This document shows, one piece after another, positions 4,840-59,788 of a stretch of 64,000 bases of DNA. A program made the position numbers and the translations under genes. The stretch comes from Escherichia coli. GTDB lineage: Bacteria; Pseudomonadota; Gammaproteobacteria; Enterobacterales; Enterobacteriaceae. The stretch is from NCBI RefSeq assembly GCF_003790525.1, contig NZ_CP033635.1. One strand, written 5' to 3'. Within the stretch, counting starts at the first letter, position 1, and every line of letters starts with the position of its first letter. The notes beneath the pieces were generated by a model. That model saw only the letters and a list, made by a program, of their open reading frames with translations. It was not told the origin of the DNA and did no database searches.

Positions 4840-7116
4840 ATGCTCAATCAAGAACTGGAACTCAGTTTAAATATGGCTTTCGCCAGAGCGCGCGAGCACC
4901 GTCATGAGTTTATGACCGTCGAGCACTTGTTACTGGCGCTGCTCAGTAACCCATCTGCCCGGGAGGCGCTGGAAGCGTGTTCTGTGGATTTGGTTGCGCT
5001 CCGTCAGGAACTGGAAGCCTTTATTGAACAAACCACACCCGTTCTGCCTGCCAGTGAAGAGGAGCGCGACACACAGCCGACGCTGAGTTTTCAGCGTGTA
5101 CTGCAACGTGCGGTCTTCCATGTCCAGTCCTCCGGTCGCAATGAGGTTACCGGTGCAAACGTTCTGGTCGCTATTTTTAGCGAACAGGAGTCGCAGGCGG
5201 CATATCTGTTGCGTAAACATGAAGTCAGCCGTCTCGATGTGGTGAACTTTATCTCTCATGGCACGCGTAAAGACGAGCCGACACAGTCTTCTGATCCTGG
5301 CAGCCAGCCAAACAGCGAAGAACAAGCTGGTGGGGAGGAACGTATGGAGAATTTCACGACGAACCTGAATCAGCTTGCGCGAGTGGGCGGAATCGACCCA
5401 CTGATTGGTCGTGAGAAGGAGCTGGAGCGTGCTATTCAGGTTCTCTGCCGTCGCCGTAAAAACAACCCGCTGCTGGTGGGGGAATCTGGTGTCGGTAAAA
5501 CCGCGATTGCGGAAGGTCTTGCCTGGCGAATTGTTCAGGGCGATGTGCCGGAAGTGATGGCTGACTGTACGATTTACTCTCTCGATATCGGTTCTCTGTT
5601 AGCGGGCACTAAATATCGCGGCGACTTTGAAAAACGTTTTAAAGCGTTGCTCAAGCAGCTGGAGCAGGACACTAACAGCATCCTGTTTATTGATGAGATC
5701 CACACCATTATCGGTGCGGGTGCAGCGTCTGGTGGTCAGGTCGATGCGGCTAACCTGATCAAACCGTTGCTCTCCAGCGGTAAAATTCGCGTAATTGGTT
5801 CGACAACCTATCAGGAGTTCAGCAACATTTTCGAGAAAGACCGTGCTCTGGCGCGTCGCTTCCAGAAAATTGATATTACTGAACCGTCGATCGAAGAAAC
5901 TGTTCAAATCATCAATGGCCTGAAACCGAAGTACGAAGCGCACCATGACGTGCGTTATACCGCAAAAGCGGTGCGTGCAGCGGTAGAGCTGGCGGTGAAA
6001 TACATTAACGATCGTCATCTGCCGGATAAAGCCATTGACGTTATCGACGAAGCGGGCGCTCGCGCACGCCTGATGCCGGTAAGCAAACGCAAGAAAACCG
6101 TTAATGTGGCGGATATTGAGTCTGTGGTGGCCCGTATTGCGCGCATTCCAGAGAAGAGTGTTTCGCAGAGTGACCGCGATACCCTGAAAAACCTCGGCGA
6201 TCGCCTGAAAATGCTGGTCTTCGGTCAGGATAAAGCCATTGAGGCGCTGACTGAAGCCATTAAGATGGCGCGTGCAGGTTTAGGTCACGAACATAAACCG
6301 GTCGGTTCGTTCCTGTTTGCCGGTCCTACCGGGGTCGGGAAAACAGAGGTGACGGTACAGCTTTCGAAAGCTTTGGGCATTGAGCTTCTGCGCTTTGATA
6401 TGTCCGAGTATATGGAACGCCATACCGTCAGCCGTCTGATTGGTGCGCCTCCGGGATACGTTGGTTTTGATCAGGGGGGGCTGCTGACCGATGCGGTCAT
6501 CAAGCATCCGCACGCGGTACTGCTGCTGGACGAAATCGAGAAAGCGCATCCGGACGTGTTCAATATTCTGTTGCAGGTGATGGACAACGGTACGCTGACC
6601 GATAACAACGGACGCAAAGCGGACTTCCGTAACGTGGTATTGGTGATGACCACCAACGCTGGGGTACGAGAAACTGAGCGTAAATCGATTGGTCTTATCC
6701 ATCAGGACAACAGCACCGATGCGATGGAAGAGATCAAGAAGATCTTTACGCCGGAGTTTCGTAACCGTCTCGACAACATTATCTGGTTCGATCATCTCTC
6801 CACCGACGTGATCCATCAGGTAGTGGATAAATTCATCGTCGAGTTGCAGGTTCAGCTGGATCAGAAAGGTGTTTCTCTGGAAGTGAGCCAGGAAGCGCGT
6901 AACTGGCTGGCCGAGAAAGGTTACGACCGGGCAATGGGCGCACGTCCGATGGCGCGTGTCATCCAGGACAACCTGAAAAAACCGCTCGCCAACGAACTGT
7001 TGTTTGGTTCGCTGGTGGACGGCGGTCAGGTGACGGTTGCGCTGGATAAAGAGAAAAATGAGCTGACTTACGGATTCCAGAGTGCACAAAAGCACAAGGC
7101 GGAAGCAGCGCATTAA
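4840..7116 (+). CDS. clpA: ATP-dependent Clp protease ATP-binding subunit ClpA
   Basis: Two AAA+ modules with Walker A GESGVGKT and GPTGVGKT; start [10 protein letters not shown] inside the track ORF. Confidence 0.95.
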
Positions 7117-21042: not shown

Positions 21043-22356
<1,314 letters not shown>

Positions 22357-22374: not shown

Positions 22375-22405
22375 CTAAAAAGCGCCTGCGGGCGCTTTTG
22401 CATGG
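22375..22405 (+). terminator. serS terminator hairpin containing the prophage attL core (22385-22399)
   Basis: aaaaagcgcctgcgggcgctttt; CCTGCGGGCGCTTTT repeated at 59774-59788. Confidence 0.7.
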
Positions 22406-22554
22406 TACTTAACTATATGAAAATAAATGGATTTTATTTTCATGTGTCCAGATAATGTCCATCTTTGAAGAAAAAAGTCCACAATACTGACGTTGTGGGC
22501 TTTTCTTTTTCCTGATGGTGTCGTGCCGTCAGTGCAACGAACCAAAGGGAGGGG

Positions 22555-22782
22555 ATGTTGATGTTGTTTTCCCTTCGCACCAGCTTTAAAGCCACTCTTG
22601 TTAACGATGATGGTACGCCACGGATCACGGCCGAGGTGAGGAATGTGACACCTGATGATATCGGGAAGGTGGCGGAACTTGTCAGGGATGTTTTTGGTAC
22701 TCCTTCCGGTACCTGCCGTTCAGACTCTGCGGCCAGGGTTGACAGGCAGGATGTTAACGCCGGGTGGCTTACGCGCCTCTGA
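22555..22782 (+). CDS. Hypothetical 75-aa protein at the attL end
   Basis: Strong SD GGGAGGGG before the ATG; preceded by a terminator hairpin. Confidence 0.35.
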   Translation: MLMLFSLRTSFKATLVNDDGTPRITAEVRNVTPDDIGKVAELVRDVFGTPSGTCRSDSAARVDRQDVNAGWLTRL

Positions 22783-22932
22783 ATGATGATGCCCTCACTG
22801 GTGAGGGTGACAAAAAAGCCCTCTCAATGGCGGGCAAATCTGGTTTTTTGTTTTGTCTCTACAGGGAAAGGGCGCCATATCGGCCCACCCCAACAACCGG
22901 ATAGCGGGGAATTTCTCCCCCGCTGCGGTTTC

Positions 22933-23073
22933 TTACGGTTTACACTGCAAGAACGCCGCAAAACGCGCTCCCCAGATATCAAAGCTGAATTCACATAACG
23001 AATCGTGGACCATCCAGATGACCAGGGTTATTGTCAGGCATAAAATGCCAACAATAATCGTTTTTTGCGGTAT
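22933..23073 (-). pseudogene. Hok/Gef-family toxin paralog with ATA in the start position
   Basis: Frame gives IPQKTIIVGILCLTITLVIWMVHDSLCEFSFDIWGARFAAFLQCKP; same length and context as the intact copy at 24938-25078. Confidence 0.45.
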
Positions 23074-23173
23074 AGCGCTTGCTCCTTTTACAAAGAGGCG
23101 CTAACCTTCCACTTGTCACGGTAGGAAGGGTCAGGCCTCGGTTAAACACAGATGTTTTCCGGGGCCTTTCCAC
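22991..23173 (-). CDS. Mok-like reading frame overlapping the hok-like ORF
   Basis: ORF overlaps the hok paralog in another frame; paralog of 24945-25178. Confidence 0.3.
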   Translation of the reverse strand: MERPRKTSVFNRGLTLPTVTSGRLAPLCKRSKRYTAKNDYCWHFMPDNNPGHLDGPRFVM

Positions 23174-23283
23174 ATCCGGCCTTCAGGTTTTCCCTCCGGC
23201 CATCAGCCGAAAGGCACCCGTTTCTTTTTGTTGCGGCAATATTTCAGGTGTCAGTTGGGGTGGGCTGTATCTTGTCTGATGCA

Positions 23284-23382
23284 TAAAAAAATGCCCGCGC
23301 TTTGGCGGGCAAAAGACAAGACTTTTCGTTTGTATATCATGGATAATGGACACCCCTTCCTGTTGTCAGGTGGCAGGCACCC
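23284..23382 (-). ncRNA. Candidate small RNA or leader unit X1
   Basis: Minus-strand -35 TTGAGA (23412-23417), 17-bp spacer, -10 TAGATT (23389-23394); ends at hairpin plus U-run. Confidence 0.3.
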
Positions 23383-23486
23383 GTGGTTAATCTACTGTTT
23401 TTGTGCTTTTGTCTCAACCCTGAAGTTTTCATGGAAAATCAGGGTTGCTTCATATGTGCCAGGAAGGTGCGGCTATGATAACTGCC

Positions 23487-23578
23487 AAAAAAAGCCCGCT
23501 TTCCGGCGGGCAAAACAGCAATGTGAGTTGTCTGTCATTGATACTGGACAGCCTTCCTGTTGTCAGGTGGAAGGTACC
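23487..23578 (-). ncRNA. Candidate small RNA or leader unit X2
   Basis: TTGAGA-N17-TAGATT on the minus strand, then terminator. Confidence 0.3.
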
Positions 23579-23930
23579 CGTGGTTAATCTACTGTCTTTG
23601 TGCTTTTGTCTCAACCCTGAAGTTTTCATGGAAAATCAGGGTTGCTTCATGTGAACCAGGAAGGTGAGGCGATGGTAACCGCCAAAAAAATGCCCGCTTT
23701 CCGGCGGGCAAAACAAGGAAGTACGGATCATGTATTATTGATTACGAGGCATTCCACCATGCCCACGTTTAATTTAGCTAGTTTTCATTTTATTCACAAT
23801 ATAGTTACTTATCATATTTATGAACAAAACTGTAATTTCATCTATAGGTATAAGTGATTTGCATTAACATGTTTCTTCTGTATTGCTGTTGGTTTTCCGA
23901 TGCTGATATTTATGATACATTCAGGGGCAA

Positions 23931-24002
23931 ATGAGGTTGTTCCACAGAAACGATGTTGAGATATTTCTGCTCCAGAAAGGACAAGCTAAAAAAATAAAGT
24001 GA
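23931..24002 (+). pseudogene. Disrupted paralog (Y1) of the small protein at 25756-25971
   Basis: MRLFHRNDVEIF... then premature stop; conserved AT-rich upstream region. Confidence 0.3.
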
Positions 24003-24135
24003 AATTATGATATGTCAGGGATGTTCAGGCATGTCAGTGTCTTATTAATAAACTCGTTGCTGCTGTAATAACACCAAAAAAATCAAAGCATAATCTGCAT
24101 GTTGTTCCTGATGACCCAATAACCACAAAAGAATA

Positions 24136-24228
24136 AAAAAATGCCCGCTTTCCGGCGGGCAAAACAGCAATGTGAGTTGTCTGTCATTGATACTGGACAC
24201 CCTTCCTGTTGTCAGGTGGAAGGCACCC
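24136..24228 (-). ncRNA. Candidate small RNA or leader unit X3
   Basis: TTGAGC-N17-TAGATT on the minus strand, then terminator. Confidence 0.3.
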
Positions 24229-24586
24229 GTGGTTAATCTACTGTCTTTGTGCTTTTGGCTCAACCCTGAAGTTTTCATGGAAAATCAGGGCTGCTTTGTG
24301 TGCGCCAGGGAAGGCGCCTCGATGGCAGGCGCAAAAAAAATGCCCGTGCTTCGGCGGGCAAAATAAGGAAGTACAGGTTACATGTTATTGATAAAGTAGC
24401 ATTGCTCTGTCCGTCTTTAATCTAACGAGTTTTGAGTTTTTTCACAATATTGTTACCTGTCATGTTATAGATGAAACTGCAATTTCATCTATAGGTATAA
24501 ATGATTTGTATTAATGTGTGTCCACTGTTTGTCTGCTTTCTGGTTTTCAGTTGACTGTGTTTCTGATGAATTCAGGAGGTTGTCTT

Positions 24587-24685
24587 ATGAGGCTGTTCCA
24601 CAGAAACGATATTGAGATTGAACTGCATTTCTCCTCCGGTGAGGATAAGGTTAAATCATTGTTGATGAAAAAAACAAAGATTTAA
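24587..24685 (+). pseudogene. Truncated paralog (Y2) of the small protein at 25756-25971
   Basis: MRLFHRNDIEIELHFSSGEDKVKS then divergence and stop; SD AGGAGG. Confidence 0.3.
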
Positions 24686-24815
24686 TTTATTGATATAAAG
24701 GATTTGTATCAGCGTATGTCCACGCAGTGACCACATTTTCGAGAGGTAGAGTAAGCCCGCAACATTGCGGGCTTTGTCTTATAGTCTGATCACTGTTTCA
24801 AGTCGGTGAGGACAC

Positions 24816-24852
24816 CAAAAAGAAAACCCGCAGTTTTTATGCTGCGGGTTTG
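24816..24852 (-). terminator. Intrinsic terminator downstream of the hok-like gene
   Basis: Minus strand aaacccgcagcataaaaactgcgggttt plus T-run. Confidence 0.6.
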
Positions 24853-24937
24853 TTGTTCATGTCTGTGAGATAGGGTGCCTTATCGACCTTACCCTGGCAA
24901 CCGATTGACGGGGGATTGCTCCCCCGTCGCGGTTTCC

Positions 24938-25078
24938 TTACTTCTTACATTGTAAGAACGCCGCAAACTCCGCTCCCCAGAAGCTCATCCGTATTTCGCA
25001 CAGCGAACCGTGCAATATCCAGATGATGAGGATTGCCGTCACGCAGAACGTGATGGCCGTAAGCGATTTTTGCGACAT
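24938..25078 (-). CDS. Hok/Gef-family type I toxin homolog (46 aa)
   Basis: MSQKSLTAITFCVTAILIIWILHGSLCEIRMSFWGAEFAAFLQCKK; TM helix plus SLCEIR...AAF as in Hok; SD AAGGAG. Confidence 0.65.
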   Translation of the reverse strand: MSQKSLTAITFCVTAILIIWILHGSLCEIRMSFWGAEFAAFLQCKK

Positions 25079-25178
25079 AGCACTTGCTCCTTTTCCGGAG
25101 AGGCGCTAACCTTTCACTTGTCAAGGTAATGCGGTTAGGGCCTCGGTTAAACAGAAATGTTTTCCGGGGCCTTTCCAC
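24945..25178 (-). CDS. Mok-like reading frame overlapping the hok-like ORF
   Basis: ORF track; overlaps the hok homolog in another frame. Confidence 0.3.
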   Translation of the reverse strand: MERPRKTFLFNRGPNRITLTSERLAPLRKRSKCYVAKIAYGHHVLRDGNPHHLDIARFAVRNTDELLGSGVCGVLTM

Positions 25179-25314
25179 ATCCGGCCTTCAGGTTTTCCCT
25201 CCGGCCATCAGCCGAAAGGCACCCGCGCGTAATTTAACTGTTTCTTTTTGTTGCGGCAATATTTCAGGTGTCAGTTGGGGTGGGCTGTATCTTGTCTGAT
25301 GCATAAAAAAATGC

Positions 25315-25400
25315 CCGCGCTTCGGCGGGCAAAAAACAAGACTTTTCGTTTGTATATCATGGATAATGGACACCCTTCCTGTTGTCAGGGGGAGGTACCC
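25315..25400 (-). ncRNA. Candidate small RNA or leader unit X4
   Basis: -35 and -10 hexamers kept (TTGAGC, TAGATT) while the 17-bp spacer differs from X1-X3. Confidence 0.3.
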
Positions 25401-25755
25401 GTAGCTAATCTACTCACTTTGTGCCCGCAGCTCAACCCTGAAGTTTTCATGGAAAATCAGGGCTGCTTTGTGTGCGCCAGGGAAGGCGCCTCGATGGCAG
25501 GCGCAAAAAAAATGCCCGCTCTCCGGCGGGCAAAACAATGATCTACGTCACATTATATTGATAACCGGGCATTCCTCCATGCCCATTTTTAATTTAGCCA
25601 TTTTTCATTTTGTTCACAATATAGTTATCTATCATATTCATGAATGAAATTATAATTTCATCTATAGGTATAAATGATTTGTGTTAATATGTTTCTCCTG
25701 TCTAACTGTTTTCTCATTTTTCGATACTAGTATTTCTGATATATTCAGGGGGCGT

Positions 25756-25971
25756 ATGAGATTGTTCCGAAGAAACGATATTGAGATTGAACTGCATTTC
25801 TCCTCCGGTGAGGATAAGGTTAAATCAATAAAGGTGAAACTAAGACATGCCCGGGATGTTCAGGCGTGTCAGTGTCTTATTGATGAACTCGTTGCTGCCG
25901 GAGGAACGCCAAAAAAACAAAAATATAATCTGCACGTGGTTCCTGATGACCCCATAACCACAAAAGAATAA
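25756..25971 (+). CDS. Hypothetical small protein (72 aa), intact member of the three-copy 'Y' family
   Basis: MRLFRRNDIEIELHFSSGEDKVKS...; SD AGGGGG; AT-rich upstream region. Confidence 0.45.
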   Translation: MRLFRRNDIEIELHFSSGEDKVKSIKVKLRHARDVQACQCLIDELVAAGGTPKKQKYNLHVVPDDPITTKE

Positions 25972-26113
25972 AAAAATGCCCGCTTTCCGGCGGGCAAAAA
26001 ACAATTTAGGTCATATTTCATCATGGATAATTAAATACTTGCCCGTGGTTGCGGGAAAGTATCTGCCGTTAATCTACTTGCCTTATGATGTCCTCTCAAC
26101 CTGATTATTGTTC

Positions 26114-26365
26114 TTAAATATCAAGATTAATCTGAGTATTCCCCCTGTGAGATCCCGGAAAATCTTCCCACGGTATCCGCTCTGTACCCTGCGGCGACGG
26201 GGCGCGTTTTGATGTGAATTTGTTAAAACCCTCCAGTGTGGTAAAGCCGATCCCGCATTCGAGGTTATTGCACTGGTAGTACTTCAGGCGAACTGTGCCT
26301 GAATCATTTTCATTGCGACTGGTGCGGATACGTGCGGATGCACCGCATAGGGGACAACGGAACAT
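26114..26365 (-). CDS. ogr: Ogr/Delta-type zinc-finger late-gene activator
   Basis: MFRCPLCGASARIRTSR...YYQCNNLEC resembles P2 Ogr C2C2 finger. Confidence 0.85.
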   Translation of the reverse strand: MFRCPLCGASARIRTSRNENDSGTVRLKYYQCNNLECGIGFTTLEGFNKFTSKRAPSPQGTERIPWEDFPGSHRGNTQINLDI

Positions 26366-29876: not shown

Positions 29877-30026
29877 TAACCGTCGTGCCCTTTGAGCACA
29901 TTGAAGACTTTGTGGCGGATATCGCCGTTATTTTCAACTGGTCTCCCGCTGAAATCTTCCTGATGGATCCCGGCGAGGTGGTCGCCTGGCGTGAGCGGGC
30001 GGCCCTTCGCAGCGGGAACGCAGAGC

Positions 30027-33000
30027 ATGAAAACGCTTGATATACGGGTCGCCTTCAGCGCTGTTGACAGGCTGACCCGTCCCACCGAAAACGCCCGTCG
30101 CATGATGGGCCAGCTTGGCGACTCCATACAGAGAACGCAGGGTGCGATCAAAAACCTGGAACGCTACGCCCGTTCATTTGATCGCGCCCGCGAGGCTGCA
30201 AACAAGGCCGGAAACGGCATTGTCAGGGCGCAACGCCAGTTAAGCGCACTTCAGCAAATTCAGCGCGCCGGAACCGTGCTGTCTGACAAACAGAAAAAGC
30301 TGATGAACGATTTGAGCCTCAAACTTGAGCGTCTCAATGAGGTCCGTGCGCGTGAAGTTCAGCGAATGCGCGAACTGGGTGGTGAGCTGCGGCGCCACGG
30401 TATTGCGCTTTCCGGCAGTGACAACACCATTCAACAGGCCATACGGCGAACACAGCAATACAACGACCAGCTGGAACGCGAACGGCAGGCGCTGGCACGT
30501 GTCACGCAGGCACGCCAGCAATATTCCCGTGCTCAGGAGACGGCGGGAAAACTTAAAACGGTCGGACTTACGGCGGTTGGTACGGCGGCGGCAGGCGGCT
30601 ATGCGGCCGGACGTTTCCTGCAACCGGCGGTCAGTTTTGGTAAGGAGATGTCACGCGTCCAGGCGCTGACCCGTATTGACAAAAACAGTCCGCAGTTTAA
30701 GGCGCTGCGCGAACAGGCCATTAAGCTGGGCTCTGAAACGCAGTTTACCGCCGGTGATGCTGCCAGCGGTCAGGCGTTCCTTGCCATGGCCGGCTTCACA
30801 CCACAGGCCATACAGGCGGCGCTACCCGGCGTGCTTGATCTGGCAATGGCTGCAGGGATGGACCTGGGACAGACTGCCGATATCAGTTCGAATATCCTCA
30901 CACAGTTTGGTCTGTCCGCTGACCAGATGGATCGCGTGGGTGACACGCTGGCCGCCACCTTCACACGAACCAATACGGATCTCCGTTCACTGGGTGAAAC
31001 CATGAAGTACACGGGTCCGGTTGCAGCTTCACTTGGCCTGTCCCTTGAACAGGCGGCAGCCATGACGGGTGTCCTTGGCAGTGTGGGGATCCGTGGAAGT
31101 GATGCAGGTACGGCGCTGCGTGCCAGTCTGTCACGTCTGGTTGATCCGCCGAAGGCCGCTGCAATGGCACTGAAAGAGCTTGGCGTGGAGACGCAGAATG
31201 CTTACGGGAACATGCGCCGGATGGAAAATATCCTGAATGAGCTGTACCAGGCCACCCGAAAATACGGTAATGCCGCGCAGGTCTCCTTTTTCAGGGCTAT
31301 TGCCGGGCAGGAGTCCTATGTTTCCCTGATGAATCTTGTCACTGCGGCGGGGGAAAATAATCTTCCCCGTCTTACGCAGGAGATTGAACTGGCCACCGGG
31401 GAACTTAATCACACTGCCCGTGTTATGGCTGATAACCTGGACGGTGACCTGAAATCACTGAACAGCGCATGGGAAGGACTGCGTATCCGTGTCGCTGACC
31501 TCGTTGACGGGCCGCTGCGTTCTGTCACGCAGTCGTTCACCCGGGTTATTGCGAAAGTCACCGCGCTGGCTCAGGCGCACCCTGAACTGACAAAACAACT
31601 GCTGATTGCCGGTGGTGTACTGCTGGCTGCGGTTGCGGCCATGGGGGCGCTGTCACTTGCCACTGGTGTGTTGATGGGGCCGCTGGCAAAACTGCGTCTT
31701 GGGTTTGCCCTGCTGACCGGCACATCCGGCCTCGGTCGTGCGCTGCCGTTACTGACGCAGCTGCGCGGCGTACTCGGTGGTCCGCTGGGCGGTATCGGTG
31801 GCTGGCGCGTGCTGTTTGTCGGTATCACCTCCGGTGCCGGACGGTTTGCTGCACTGCTGGGCGTAGTTGCGGGGCGGCTTCGTGGTGTGCAGGCGGGACT
31901 TGGCGCGCTGCGTGGTGGTCTGCTGGCTGCGTTCACTTCACCTGGCGGCGCACTGATTTCACTGGGGCGCGGTATCGGAATACTGGCGCTCAGACTGTCA
32001 GGTCTGCCCGCACTGTGGGGGATGGTGAGTGGTGCGGTGGGCGCACTTGGCGGGGCGCTGGGTTTTCTGTTAAGTCCGGTGGGCCTTGTGGTGGCGACAC
32101 TGGTCGGTGCGGCAGTGCTTATCTGGCGGCACTGGGACCAGCTGAAGGCTGTCGTGGGCGGGTTCTTGTCCGGCCTGTGGCAGGGGCTTACGCCACTGCG
32201 CGAGGCTGTGGCACCACTGGGACCGCTGTTTGAGTATGTCGGGCAGACAATCGGGCGTGTGTGGCAGTGGTTCGTGGATTTGTTCGCGCCGGTAAGCACA
32301 ACAAAGGATGAGCTGGACAAGTGCACGGAAGCCGGGCGTACGTTCGGGCAGAAGGTAGGGGAGTTTATCAGCAATCTGGTGACCGGTCCGGTTACGCTGC
32401 TGATTGACTCATTAACCCGGGTGCTGGAAAAACTCGGGCTGATTCCGTCGGCGGTTGAGCGCGCCCGGAAAAAGGCGGAAGAACTAAAACAGAAGGAGTT
32501 GCTGAACGAGAAAGCTGCCATGCTTCTGGCGGATGTTAACGTCATTAATCCGCCGAAAAAGGACGAGGATAAAAAAGACGGCGAAAAACCCAAAGGGGGG
32601 CAACCACCCCTGACGGGGGAGAATACCGGCACTATGCGCCGCCTGAACAAAATCGTCGATAACACCGGTGGTCTGCTGGATGAGGCGAAACAGGCGAAAA
32701 AACGCGCTGGTCCCGGCGATATTATCTTTAAAAACCTGCCGGAAGCGCTGGCCGTTCGTGGTGAGTGGAAGGAGGAACGCTTTAACCGAGCAGCTTCCCT
32801 GTTACCGGGTAGTGTCAGTGAGCCACCTGTCAGACTGCCGCAGGTGCCGTCGGTCAGTGTGCCTTCGTTGCCACCGCTGCCAGCGCCACCGCCTGTCAGT
32901 GTTTCGCCGCTGATATCCACCACGGCGAACGTGTCGCCGGTCGTGAAGCCGGTGGTGTCCGTGAATAATGTGCCGGTTATTCCTCCGGTCGTCCGTCCGG

Positions 33001-33338
33001 TACTGTCCGGTAATATTACGCCAGTGGTTCCGCCGGTGATCAAACCGGTTATGACTCACGATGTCATGCCGACGTTCTCCCCGCTAATGACACCAGTGAT
33101 GGCGGCAACATCCCGTCCGGTGGTTGAGGCTGTGCGCCAGCCCATATCCCCCGCATCGCCCCGACCGCGCCAGAGTGAGCCGGCACCATGGGGATTAACT
33201 GGCGAACTGCATATTCACCTGCATGATGTTCACACGCAAAACCCGCGCGAACTGGCAAAAATGGTGGGTGATGCCGTCCGTGCGGAAATGGAACGCCGTA
33301 TCCGCCAGACAGTCGGTAGTTTCCGTGACAGAGATTAG
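30027..33338 (+). CDS. T: Tail tape measure protein (P2 T-like)
   Basis: About 1103 aa, coiled-coil N-terminus, Gly/Ala-rich hydrophobic middle; start MKTLDIRV. Confidence 0.85.
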   Translation: MKTLDIRVAFSAVDRLTRPTENARRMMGQLGDSIQRTQGAIKNLERYARSFDRAREAANKAGNGIVRAQRQLSALQQIQRAGTVLSDKQKKLMNDLSLKLERLNEVRAREVQRMRELGGELRRHGIALSGSDNTIQQAIRRTQQYNDQLERERQALARVTQARQQYSRAQETAGKLKTVGLTAVGTAAAGGYAAGRFLQPAVSFGKEMSRVQALTRIDKNSPQFKALREQAIKLGSETQFTAGDAASGQAFLAMAGFTPQAIQAALPGVLDLAMAAGMDLGQTADISSNILTQFGLSADQMDRVGDTLAATFTRTNTDLRSLGETMKYTGPVAASLGLSLEQAAAMTGVLGSVGIRGSDAGTALRASLSRLVDPPKAAAMALKELGVETQNAYGNMRRMENILNELYQATRKYGNAAQVSFFRAIAGQESYVSLMNLVTAAGENNLPRLTQEIELATGELNHTARVMADNLDGDLKSLNSAWEGLRIRVADLVDGPLRSVTQSFTRVIAKVTALAQAHPELTKQLLIAGGVLLAAVAAMGALSLATGVLMGPLAKLRLGFALLTGTSGLGRALPLLTQLRGVLGGPLGGIGGWRVLFVGITSGAGRFAALLGVVAGRLRGVQAGLGALRGGLLAAFTSPGGALISLGRGIGILALRLSGLPALWGMVSGAVGALGGALGFLLSPVGLVVATLVGAAVLIWRHWDQLKAVVGGFLSGLWQGLTPLREAVAPLGPLFEYVGQTIGRVWQWFVDLFAPVSTTKDELDKCTEAGRTFGQKVGEFISNLVTGPVTLLIDSLTRVLEKLGLIPSAVERARKKAEELKQKELLNEKAAMLLADVNVINPPKKDEDKKDGEKPKGGQPPLTGENTGTMRRLNKIVDNTGGLLDEAKQAKKRAGPGDIIFKNLPEALAVRGEWKEERFNRAASLLPGSVSEPPVRLPQVPSVSVPSLPPLPAPPPVSVSPLISTTANVSPVVKPVVSVNNVPVIPPVVRPVLSGNITPVVPPVIKPVMTHDVMPTFSPLMTPVMAATSRPVVEAVRQPISPASPRPRQSEPAPWGLTGELHIHLHDVHTQNPRELAKMVGDAVRAEMERRIRQTVGSFRDRD

Positions 33339-57655: not shown

Positions 57656-58177
57656 TTAGCCGGGCTGGTTGTTTTTGAGTTGCTCCAGTTTTGAAACTCT
57701 GGGGGAGTAAACCTGCTTACCTTTAACGGTCTGGCAGTCCTCCTTGTTTGCCGGTGAAAACTTTCTTTTCTTGCGGTCGTACGTCCAGTAGCTTTTCCAG
57801 TTGTGCCACTCTGGCGGTTCGCACTCCAGTAGTTCGTCGGCTAGTTCGTCCCAGGCTTTGGCGTTAAACCACCATGTACCGTCTGACTTTTCATCTTCGG
57901 GATTTGAGCGCGTTTTGTGACCCGGCATCTGCCCGCGCTGAATGGCGGCGCGTAGCGCAGATTTTGTTACCCCCAGATAGGCAGCCCCTTTTTCCAGTGA
58001 CACAAGTCCTGCGACTGGGCCGTCCAGTCGTAGGGTTGCGCCCTTTTTGTAGGACGGTCTGGTTTTGGTTTCCAGGTGTTCGTTGTCGTTGGCAGCTTCA
58101 ATGAATTCATTGTCCGCGCCATCATCCTGAACCGGTTGAGCGCCAGATAACTCTTTGTCGGCAATAATCTCCCGCAT
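57656..58177 (-). CDS. Cox/Apl-like HTH excisionase-regulator candidate (173 aa)
   Basis: Divergent from the C repressor gene; HTH-like AYLGVTKSALRAAIQRGQMPGHK. Confidence 0.45.
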   Translation of the reverse strand: MREIIADKELSGAQPVQDDGADNEFIEAANDNEHLETKTRPSYKKGATLRLDGPVAGLVSLEKGAAYLGVTKSALRAAIQRGQMPGHKTRSNPEDEKSDGTWWFNAKAWDELADELLECEPPEWHNWKSYWTYDRKKRKFSPANKEDCQTVKGKQVYSPRVSKLEQLKNNQPG

Positions 58178-58682: not shown

Positions 58683-59687
58683 GTGCTGATCATGTCGATT
58701 AAGCAACTCAAAGACGGACGTTATCAGGTTGATGTAAGGCCTCAGGGGGCGGGAGGAAGGCGGATTCGTAAGATTTTCACCCTGAAATCAAAGGCGCAGG
58801 AATTCGAAAGATACGTTCTTCAGAATTTCCACAATAACCCGTGGCAGGCAAGGCCCGCCGATCAACGGCGGTTATCAGAACTGATTGAGGTGTGGTGGAT
58901 GCTTGATGGTCGTAATCAGGCATATGGTGATACCTACAGAACCAGACTGGAGAAGGTGATACGTGAAATGGGGGACCCGCGCGCCAGCCAGATGACACGA
59001 AAATTCGTGATTGAGTATCGCTCGGATAAGTTGCAGGCGGGACTGATGCCGTCCAGTATCAATCGCGACCTGTGCGCCTTATCTGCGATGTTTTCGTTGT
59101 TAATTGACGCGGAGGTTTATCATAACGAAAACCCTGTGCGCGGAATACGTAAACTCAAGGTTCAGAATACAGAAATGGCCTTTCTTTCAGATGACGAGAT
59201 TGATCGCCTTCTGAAACGGCTTGAGGGTGATGCACGACGCATTGCCATTCTGTGCCTTTCGACCGGGGCCAGATGGAAAGAGGCGTCAACGCTTCGCGGG
59301 GAACACATCGTGGGTAACAGGGTGACGTTCTTTAACACAAAGAACGGGAAATCGCGCTCGGTTCCTGTAGCTGATTCCGTTGTGCCGTTAATTAAAACCC
59401 GCCGGACCGGCCTGTTATATCAGGTTGATTATCTCAGTTTCAGGGAGATCCTTCAGGAGGTGAAGCCCGACTTACCCAAAGGGCAGGCCACGCATGTCAT
59501 GCGGCACACGTTCGCCACGCATTTCATGATGAACGGCGGGAACATCGTCACGTTGCAGAGGATCCTGGGTCACGCCACGATTCAGCAAACGATGACGTAT
59601 GCGCATTTTTCACCGGACTTTTTACAGGATGCGATCAGCTTTAATCCGCTGGCTGAAAGTGTCCATAAACTGTCCATCGACCAGTAA
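58683..59687 (+). CDS. int: Tyrosine integrase (P2 Int-like)
   Basis: KQLKDGRYQVDVRP...AILCLSTGARW...HVMRHTFATHF...LGHATIQQTMTYAHF close to P2 Int. Confidence 0.9.
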   Translation: MLIMSIKQLKDGRYQVDVRPQGAGGRRIRKIFTLKSKAQEFERYVLQNFHNNPWQARPADQRRLSELIEVWWMLDGRNQAYGDTYRTRLEKVIREMGDPRASQMTRKFVIEYRSDKLQAGLMPSSINRDLCALSAMFSLLIDAEVYHNENPVRGIRKLKVQNTEMAFLSDDEIDRLLKRLEGDARRIAILCLSTGARWKEASTLRGEHIVGNRVTFFNTKNGKSRSVPVADSVVPLIKTRRTGLLYQVDYLSFREILQEVKPDLPKGQATHVMRHTFATHFMMNGGNIVTLQRILGHATIQQTMTYAHFSPDFLQDAISFNPLAESVHKLSIDQ

Positions 59688-59773: not shown

Positions 59774-59788
59774 CCTGCGGGCGCTTTT
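59774..59788. other. attR core CCTGCGGGCGCTTTT
   Basis: Identical 15-mer at 22385-22399. Confidence 0.7.

Follow-up and report, generated by a model that had tools for sequence, protein, structure and literature searches.

The P2-family prophage that sits between serS and dmsA in a 64,000-nucleotide (nt) stretch of an Escherichia coli chromosome (contig NZ_CP033635.1; the whole stretch is referred to here as the window) has 3.7 kb between its left attachment site (attL) and ogr, the gene for the late-gene activator. This spacing is unusual because the corresponding interval in P2 is only about 100 bp and, in the annotated P2 genome, holds a terminator, the P arm, an IHF site and the attP core only. 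What fills the additional DNA, and how did it come to lie there? Throughout this interval, RefSeq/PGAP annotates only a Hok/Gef gene and a hypothetical protein. Our analysis suggests that the segment (positions 22400-26110) is an att-proximal cargo arm made of self-contained transcription units, in which two such arms have been fused, an explanation that as a whole we hold to be somewhat better than even. Confidence in its parts differs: the anatomy and two-arm origin of the segment are, in our judgment, highly probable, and the chance that its small units are expressed, functional small RNAs (sRNAs) falls a little short of even.

The attL core (CCTGCGGGCGCTTTT; 22385-22399, no strand) is located in the terminator region just after serS, which ends at 22356, and is repeated exactly over 15 nt at 59774-59788, next to int. 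Adjacent to it is the functional P arm (22400-22504, no strand), which has the layout of the annotated P2 attP: an AT-rich stretch, two Int arm-type sites (TGTCCA, 22445-22450 and 22456-22461) and then a bidirectional terminator (22473-22504). A second TGTCCA arm-type pair was found on the int side at about 59658-59678. From the att repeat and the arm sites it follows that the segment belongs to the prophage and reaches from the functional P arm to ogr (26114-26365, minus strand), which marks the edge of the phage backbone. In annotated records the gene order is serS, the segment, ogr, D, sheath and tube genes, continuing to Cox, repressor, integrase and dmsA. An initial annotation made from the sequence alone was thus correct in locating the segment between attL and ogr, in regarding a short spacer as normal for P2-type prophages, and in describing a segment built from repeated terminator, promoter, small open reading frame (ORF) and hok-like modules, all of which are present. 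Its counts of two hok/mok-like loci, eight near-identical minus-oriented terminators and four to five units of a type here called X (five are present) also agreed with our results. Its three paralogs of a small gene, here called Y, exist as three copies, of which only Y3 is intact (Y1 is frameshifted and has a stop codon, and Y2 is cut).

The origin of the segment can be read from a fossil attL-type junction at 24653-24798 (no strand), which consists of an att core, an AT-rich stretch, the arm sites TGTCCAC and TGACCAC, and a terminator (24753-24774). This junction is 90% identical over 147 nt (E 2e-50) to the attP next to int of Chuche, a P2-like phage that integrates at pdxB, and its arm-site pair matches a pair in the 3' end of Chuche int. 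In 303 Chuche-type lysogens the int-side (attR-type) matches, often adjoining pdxB, stop at position 2519 of the reference sequence L011, and two short matches in such lysogens, read as attL-type, begin at L011 2500-2504; these limits therefore place the Chuche core at about L011 2500-2519. Homology between the window and Chuche starts at L011 2501, exactly where Y2 ceases to resemble Y3, and the Y3 sequence at the corresponding point (GTTAAATCAATAAAGGTGAAAC) resembles the core region (GTTAAAAATCCTTGTTGATGAAAA). The functional and fossil sites both resemble P2 attP and attL in having a core, an AT-rich stretch, two arm-type Int sites 11 nt apart and a terminator. The arrangement differs from P2 tandem lysogeny in that the fossil site lies inside the cargo gene Y of another prophage and not in a host gene, and in that one junction survives. 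These comparisons identify the array as two phage arms joined at an apparent fossil att site. The Chuche attP (L011 2470-2540) also carries a short ORF with a strong Shine-Dalgarno sequence that ends near the core (..SETEKGLKILVDEKNDDLIC*), which probably supplies a replacement 3' end for pdxB after integration.

Repeat finding and self-BLAST recovered a pair of co-linear repeats (22866-23517 and 24869-25537, 81.6% identical) and three X-Y repeats of about 650-700 nt. In related prophages we found 4- or 6-unit versions of the array, and their comparison showed that X-Y units duplicate and delete via repeat recombination. Relatives at the copA site (L004, L006 and L021) have the order ORF75-X1-X2-Z-Y-X5-ogr, and a relative at the ihfA site (L003) has hicAB-X1-X2-Z-Y-X5-ogr. 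The copA and ihfA arms therefore define X1-X2-Z-Y-X5 as a core block with variable outboard cargo (ORF75, hicAB or hok). Comparing the ogr-att regions of these related prophages revealed a shared block, and the two cassettes of the window are separated by the fossil pdxB-type att site, a feature that the initial annotation overlooked. In L003 (E. coli 23CRST011), positions 5401-6001 encode a hicA/hicB type II toxin-antitoxin where the window has ORF75 and hok1, and the outboard slot of the arm is a repeated location for toxin-antitoxin cargo.

The array itself comprises eight paralogous units, five X and three Z (the latter inside the Y units), each closed by one terminator. The eight near-identical terminators lie on the minus strand, with stems at 23311, 23511, 23710, 24161, 24360, 25331, 25532 and 25996 (higher coordinate), and all follow the pattern (T)GCCCGCC-N6-GCGGGC(A)-T7; the consensus scan that recovered them counted 17 terminator-like sites in the segment compared with 4.7 ± 2.1 in shuffled sequences. 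The unit promoter (TTGNGN, 17 nt, TARATT) keeps its hexamers and spacing in all eight, such that a promoter, a short transcript (50-300 nt range) and a U-tract terminator are predicted for every unit. The predicted RNAs are 80-98 nt long, begin with a hairpin in most units and contain a UAUC(A/C)AU-like box in all. On the minus strand, X1 (23283-23420) has the promoter TTGAGA-17-TAGATT, a predicted 98-nt RNA and its terminator, and is followed by X2 (23485-23617, predicted RNA of 93 nt), X3 (24133-24266, 94 nt), X4 (25303-25438, 96 nt) and X5 (25968-26102, 95 nt). X5 lies directly after the ogr stop codon, its predicted terminator would also serve ogr, and its 5' hairpin had a z of -5.3 when folding was compared with shuffles. 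A relic of a ninth X unit, X0 (22799-22862, minus strand), flanks hok1 and was recognized from repeat families D2 and D16 and by comparison with L006; it retains a degenerate terminator together with a remnant promoter spacer and -35. With promoter hexamers and terminators retained, X5 and Z differ almost completely from X1-X4 in both spacer and RNA body. Hexamers retained amid diverged spacers are the pattern expected for promoters under selection, in an alignment that was itself anchored on the promoters.

A covariance model built from the eight units found just these eight in the 64-kb window and four per related locus, and in P2, P88, PhiR44_2 and Chuche it returned nothing convincing, with matches of only 11-18 bits. 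Rfam 15 contained no family for X/Z; the best matches were RyhB, AgvB, Hrs1 and Trp_leader at 22-25 bits (E 0.2-0.6) and were driven by the terminator. The 3' part of X2/X3 (ACAGACAACUCACA ahead of the terminator; 24136-24189, minus strand) is CA-rich, like GcvB target mimics, and gave weak Rfam matches to AgvB and RyhB (23-24 bits) that are probably terminator-driven as well. Three other readings of the X sequence were tried and rejected. Plus-strand coding (ORFs such as MDNGHP...) varies in frame between copies, and in X5 it stops after three codons. A plus-strand promoter, TTGTCA-17-GTTAAT, has lost its -35 in X5, but no copy lacks the minus-strand promoter. Nor do the units pass as att arms, IHF sites or DnaA boxes: the box departs from the IHF consensus and agrees with a DnaA box at no more than 7/9 positions, and the real arm sites lie elsewhere.

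The X/Z units resemble phage morons and prophage sRNAs, including AgvB and AsxR of Stx phages and DicF, in being autonomous promoter-to-terminator units between backbone genes, with short predicted RNAs that end in a GC hairpin and U-tract, in the accessory DNA of a temperate phage. They differ from these in matching no Rfam sequence or structure apart from the terminator, in forming eight paralogs in a single array, in belonging to a P2-type and not a lambdoid phage, and in being known from sequence prediction. A second point of comparison is the Sib/Ibs family (QUAD repeats), in which several paralogous RNA units of ~100-200 nt are likewise repeated over a few kb, amid abundant type I toxin-antitoxin loci. 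The difference is that the strand opposite the X/Z RNAs has no conserved small hydrophobic ORF; the plus-strand frames vary between copies. X1-X3 and the hok loci have in common a -10 box TAGATT, 6 nt, and then the +1 start GGGUGCCU(U), the first 8-11 bases of the transcript. X1-X3 are also the best in-register non-self matches in the window to the 49-nt hok promoter and 5' end (29-30/49; chance maximum 27). Beyond this, the only identities between X and hok are short stretches (≤11 nt) at the terminator and where transcription starts. We hypothesize that the X/Z units may descend from a hok promoter and mRNA 5' end.

The two hok/mok loci (about 22863-23262 and 24860-25262) share 81.6% identity at a distance of 2005 nt. 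The hok2/mok2/sok2 locus (24860-25262, minus strand) is apparently intact: its hok ORF (24938-25078) starts with ATG behind the promoter TTGCCG-17-TAAATT, matches Pfam HOK_GEF (PF01848, 9.8e-7) and phrog_251 (8.5e-22), and carries the PGAP label 'Hok/Gef family protein'. Mok frames with GTG starts overlap the hok frames in both loci (24945-25178, 77 aa, and 22991-23173, 60 aa). The ends of the hok2 mRNA are complementary and of tac/fbi type (5' GGGUGCCUU, 3' AAGGCACCC), and those of hok1 (5' GGGUGCC, 3' GGCGCCC) pair with one G-U. The Rfam sok model (RF01794) aligned over its full length to the hok1 locus (23062-23219; 48.1 bits, E 1.2e-8) and to the hok2 locus (46.2 bits, E 3.9e-8), where the gathering score is 59. 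By these sequence features hok2/mok/sok appears to be a complete type I toxin-antitoxin locus. Its hok is 94% identical to that of Chuche, and close copies immediately follow ogr in the sequenced phages P88, PhiR44_2 and Chuche.

The hok1/mok1/sok1 locus (22863-23262, minus strand; hok ORF 22933-23073) is evidently a dead copy, a point missed in the initial annotation. The start codon has changed from ATG to ATA, and a 15-nt deletion removes the -10 box of the hok mRNA promoter, two apparently inactivating lesions in a gene that still matches phrog_251 at E 2.1e-17 (residue 1 replaced by M for the query). As in hok/mok/sok of plasmid R1 (parB) and the chromosomal and prophage copies, both modules have a 46-codon Hok frame with an overlapping mok, a leader that matches the Rfam sok model with E about 1e-8 and, in hok2, complementary 5' and 3' ends. 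In contrast to those loci, this prophage arm holds two copies, one doubly inactivated, its sok scores stay below the Rfam gathering threshold, and the hok loci account for only about 0.8 kb of the 3.7 kb. Of the two loci, only hok1 has a plus-strand promoter of good quality at the sok position. This strong promoter (23031-23058, TTGTCA-16-AATAAT, 10/12) lies where the sok promoter is expected, and the sok1 region could be an orphan antitoxin against hok2 or incoming hok loci. A live hok/sok beside a dead hok with an apparent sok promoter bears on interference between toxin-antitoxin copies. The two cassettes have about 82% identity except in a 136-nt tract (23220-23355 and 25240-25375), which covers the region upstream of the hok promoter together with the 3' part of X1/X4. 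This tract reaches 99% and looks like the product of recent gene conversion.

To account for these features, we propose that a second, pdxB-integrating P2-like phage integrated into the Y cargo gene of a resident prophage, and that the tandem of two phages then collapsed, which would have placed new DNA between ogr and att. Unequal crossing-over and gene conversion would then continue, driven by the X repeats and by terminators that are identical over 30 bp. The cargo units would be active in the lysogen. By analogy with the known hok family, hok2/sok most likely would penalize prophage loss through post-segregational killing or abort infection by other phages. The X/Z units would make RNAs of 80-98 nt that could base-pair in trans via an exposed region with targets outside the locus. 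A more speculative extension, which we think less likely than not, is that X/Z represent an undescribed prophage sRNA family that may stem from the hok promoter and mRNA 5' end, is kept in at least four copies beside ogr and expands when P2-like phages integrate into each other's cargo genes. These RNAs might act in trans on host or rival-phage transcripts or in hok/sok control (e.g., as mimics of the hok 5' end), and together with Y they might form a conserved accessory block confined to one P2 lineage.

Several observations weigh against this explanation. The reciprocal (attR-type) junction of the proposed integration is gone, and the Int-mediated step is inferred from a single junction. Both sok matches score below the gathering threshold, and the predicted promoters and start sites of the X/Z units reach 9/12 consensus matches at best. 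Covariation was not scorable, as the hairpins of X, X5 and Z share no alignment columns; RNAalifold on the units returned the terminator only, and the 5' hairpins were assessed by per-unit folding against shuffles in place of covariation. No above-chance pairing was detected between the single-stranded parts of X/Z and the Y mRNA, the hok2 mRNA ends or the ogr start region. The family is also tiny (30/5426 E. coli genomes) and made of close copies, and its conservation may partly reflect youth.

In a rival reading, X/Z are functionless debris, either deleted and decayed hok-type loci or promoter and terminator leftovers, that recombination has copied passively and that would yield no RNA of consequence. 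We consider this to be the main rival and give it perhaps one chance in three or slightly less. It would explain why X1-X3 share the -10 box, spacing and +1 start with the hok loci and are the best matches in the window to the hok promoter, and it agrees with hairpins in X1-X4 that are unexceptional relative to shuffles and with the failure to find local pairing targets. It fits less well with promoter hexamers, exact 17-nt spacing and terminators that are kept in all eight units despite the divergence of X5 and Z, or with the retention of four units beside ogr in all the related prophages that we compared, which between them occupy four att sites. The hok similarity is, moreover, undetectable beyond about 11 nt.

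The initial annotation had pictured a roughly 2-kb cassette (hok, X, Y), tandemly duplicated in place and then diverged or decayed. The 2005-nt distance between the co-linear repeats and the ability of X-Y units to duplicate and delete by repeat recombination are in keeping with this history, and the part of it that invokes repeat-mediated rearrangement stands. As the main event, however, in-place duplication is already largely refuted by the fossil att site and appears unlikely. The two copies are only about 82% identical, whereas an independent phage has a hok with 94% identity to hok2. Precisely at the left edge of the right cassette, Y2 is cut by a foreign att core and P arm, and the left neighbors of the two cassettes differ (X0 and ORF75 compared with the fossil att site and terminators). 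Fusion of two phage arms, with about 82% identity and a fossil att site between them, is thus the better description of the main event.

The Y copies lie on the plus strand. Y1 (23931-24134) is a decayed copy with frameshifting deletions of 8 nt and 2 nt and an in-frame TGA, Y2 (24587-24652) retains only the first 22 codons and is truncated by the fossil att site, and Y3 (25756-25971; WP_001236182.1) is an intact gene for 71 aa with a Shine-Dalgarno sequence, convergent on ogr. An intact gene with a Y2-type 5' end was found in L007. Residues 1-56 of Y3 align to positions 72-127 of the 128 positions in PHROG 14142, its C-terminal half (E 4.9e-12), and a long form of Y, P0011, aligns to the full length of this family (E 1.3e-41). 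Unlike PHROG 14142, the E. coli Y is without the N-terminal half and the Z RNA unit fills that space; weak similarity reaches 18 codons upstream of the Y start. Close homologs of Y are few and all from E. coli, and an exhaustive HMMER search added relatives at 42-47% identity. Distant relatives are convergent with ogr beside the P arm in the P2-like prophages L014 and L015. These alignments mark Y as a real protein family that corresponds to the C-terminal domain of PHROG 14142 and recurs beside ogr. No match to Y was found in Pfam, NCBIfam or PADLOC, and an AlphaFold2 model (pLDDT 76; order beta-beta-beta-alpha-beta) returned only generic structural neighbors in fold searches. The claim that the segment is not a described system is accordingly accurate for X/Z and Y, which match no named RNA or defense family, but not for hok/mok/sok, a classical type I toxin-antitoxin found after ogr in other phages, nor for Y as a member of PHROG 14142. 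The same division holds for the Rfam comparison, with sok matches, if below the gathering score, and no family for X/Z.

Some further features of the Y units were observed. Four P4-like satellites (L016-L019) encode a 57-aa stand-alone Y homolog after the primase gene, convergent with an unannotated 159-aa gene, and the Y family is therefore common to P2-like helpers and satellites. A near-perfect 28-bp palindrome (24466-24493; TATAGATGAAACTG/CAATTTCATCTATA) upstream of Y2, partly retained upstream of Y1 and Y3, overlaps a TATAAT / TGTAAT / TGCAAT box and may be the operator of a Y promoter. The AT-rich leaders of the Y units (23835-23878, 24482-24525 and 25655-25698) resemble P-arm sequence (24680-24723 and 22408-22451), up to 80% over 44 nt, and in the distant relative L014 a long Y gene lies directly beside the P arm; the leaders may be older att remnants. 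The att-proximal gene of the segment, ORF75 (22555-22782, plus strand), encodes a 75-aa orphan protein without a match in Pfam, NCBIfam, PADLOC or PHROG and also occurs in the copA-site relatives.

Could X/Z and Y together form a new toxin-antitoxin or anti-phage module, with Y as effector or regulator and the sRNAs as antitoxins or controllers? The X1-X2-Z-Y-X5 block does travel together, its neighboring cargo is of a toxin-antitoxin kind (hok, hicAB), and Y has relatives in P4-like satellites. We nevertheless think this improbable. Y has no match in the defense and domain collections named above, is hydrophilic, unlike type I toxins, and has only generic fold matches. The RNAs lie on the opposite strand without overlap with the Y transcript, a layout of neither type I nor type III. 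ToxIN-like type III systems have tandem RNA repeats upstream of a toxin gene and on its strand, whereas here every unit measures about 130-200 nt, has a promoter to itself and lies opposite a Y that PADLOC does not match. Complementarity between the RNAs and the Y start region is not above chance, and distant Y homologs occur beside ogr without such RNA units. We consider it very improbable that the repeats are not genes but DNA bound by proteins (additional att arms; sites for IHF, Cox or Int; operators): the AT-rich region upstream of Y resembles a P arm (repeat family D7, 80% between 24482-24525 and the fossil arm) and RNA hairpins are also inverted repeats in DNA, but TGTCCA pairs, the real arm-type sites, are confined to the functional and fossil att sites, the functional att arm lies outboard of the cargo in relatives, the conserved box does not fit the IHF consensus, and strong U-tract terminators point to transcription units.

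The preferred reading of a fused cargo arm is also informed by its distribution. By megablast, the full segment (22400-26110) was present at 99.8-100% identity in 26/5426 complete E. coli genomes, from strains isolated from chickens and humans; copies that are 100% identical across these strains argue for a mobile composite phage. X/Z and Y were found in 30/5426 of these genomes and, by an X-specific pattern scan of IMG/VR, in three contigs of the same lineage. The same pattern had no match in 100,044 species-representative genomes (one genome per species), and X/Z and Y were in no deposited phage or plasmid record. Our literature search found no paper that describes X/Z and Y or links P2-like phages, ogr and small RNAs. 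The paper on P88 does not mention hok, and a Salmonella BTP5 transcriptome paper reports on ogr only that it was expressed under all conditions tested (PMC7067206).

As a composite the segment is new, and its parts are mostly of familiar kinds, namely prophage cargo with a type I toxin-antitoxin and sRNA-like genes, with an unusually legible history of assembly. If the eight units are expressed, they would be a compact natural array of sibling small RNAs on a mobile P2-type phage, and the resemblance to the hok promoter and 5' end would make this a rare case in which the origin of an sRNA family is readable from sequence. Cargo positions have been described in P2 at the tin/old and Z/fun regions; to our knowledge the ogr-att junction is not among them. 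The fossil att site offers a concrete route by which temperate phages may gain cargo, through integration into a cargo gene of a resident prophage followed by collapse of the tandem. No major concept is changed by these findings, and their value is in a well-defined, testable locus.

Three minor observations concern the prophage at large. E. coli SCU-115 (L020, 2897-5800) carries almost the same phage arm, with an identical 15-nt core, downstream of zapB in place of serS; the chromosomal sites used by the phage therefore number at least two and are alike in their terminator sequences. In the window (29991-33338) the tail tape-measure gene is a single ORF of 1115 codons; it is annotated as broken in strain 135 (L002, 8239-11540), such that some carriers hold a defective copy of the phage. 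The Cox-family protein of the prophage (57656-58177, minus strand) has 173 aa, about twice the length of P2 Cox.

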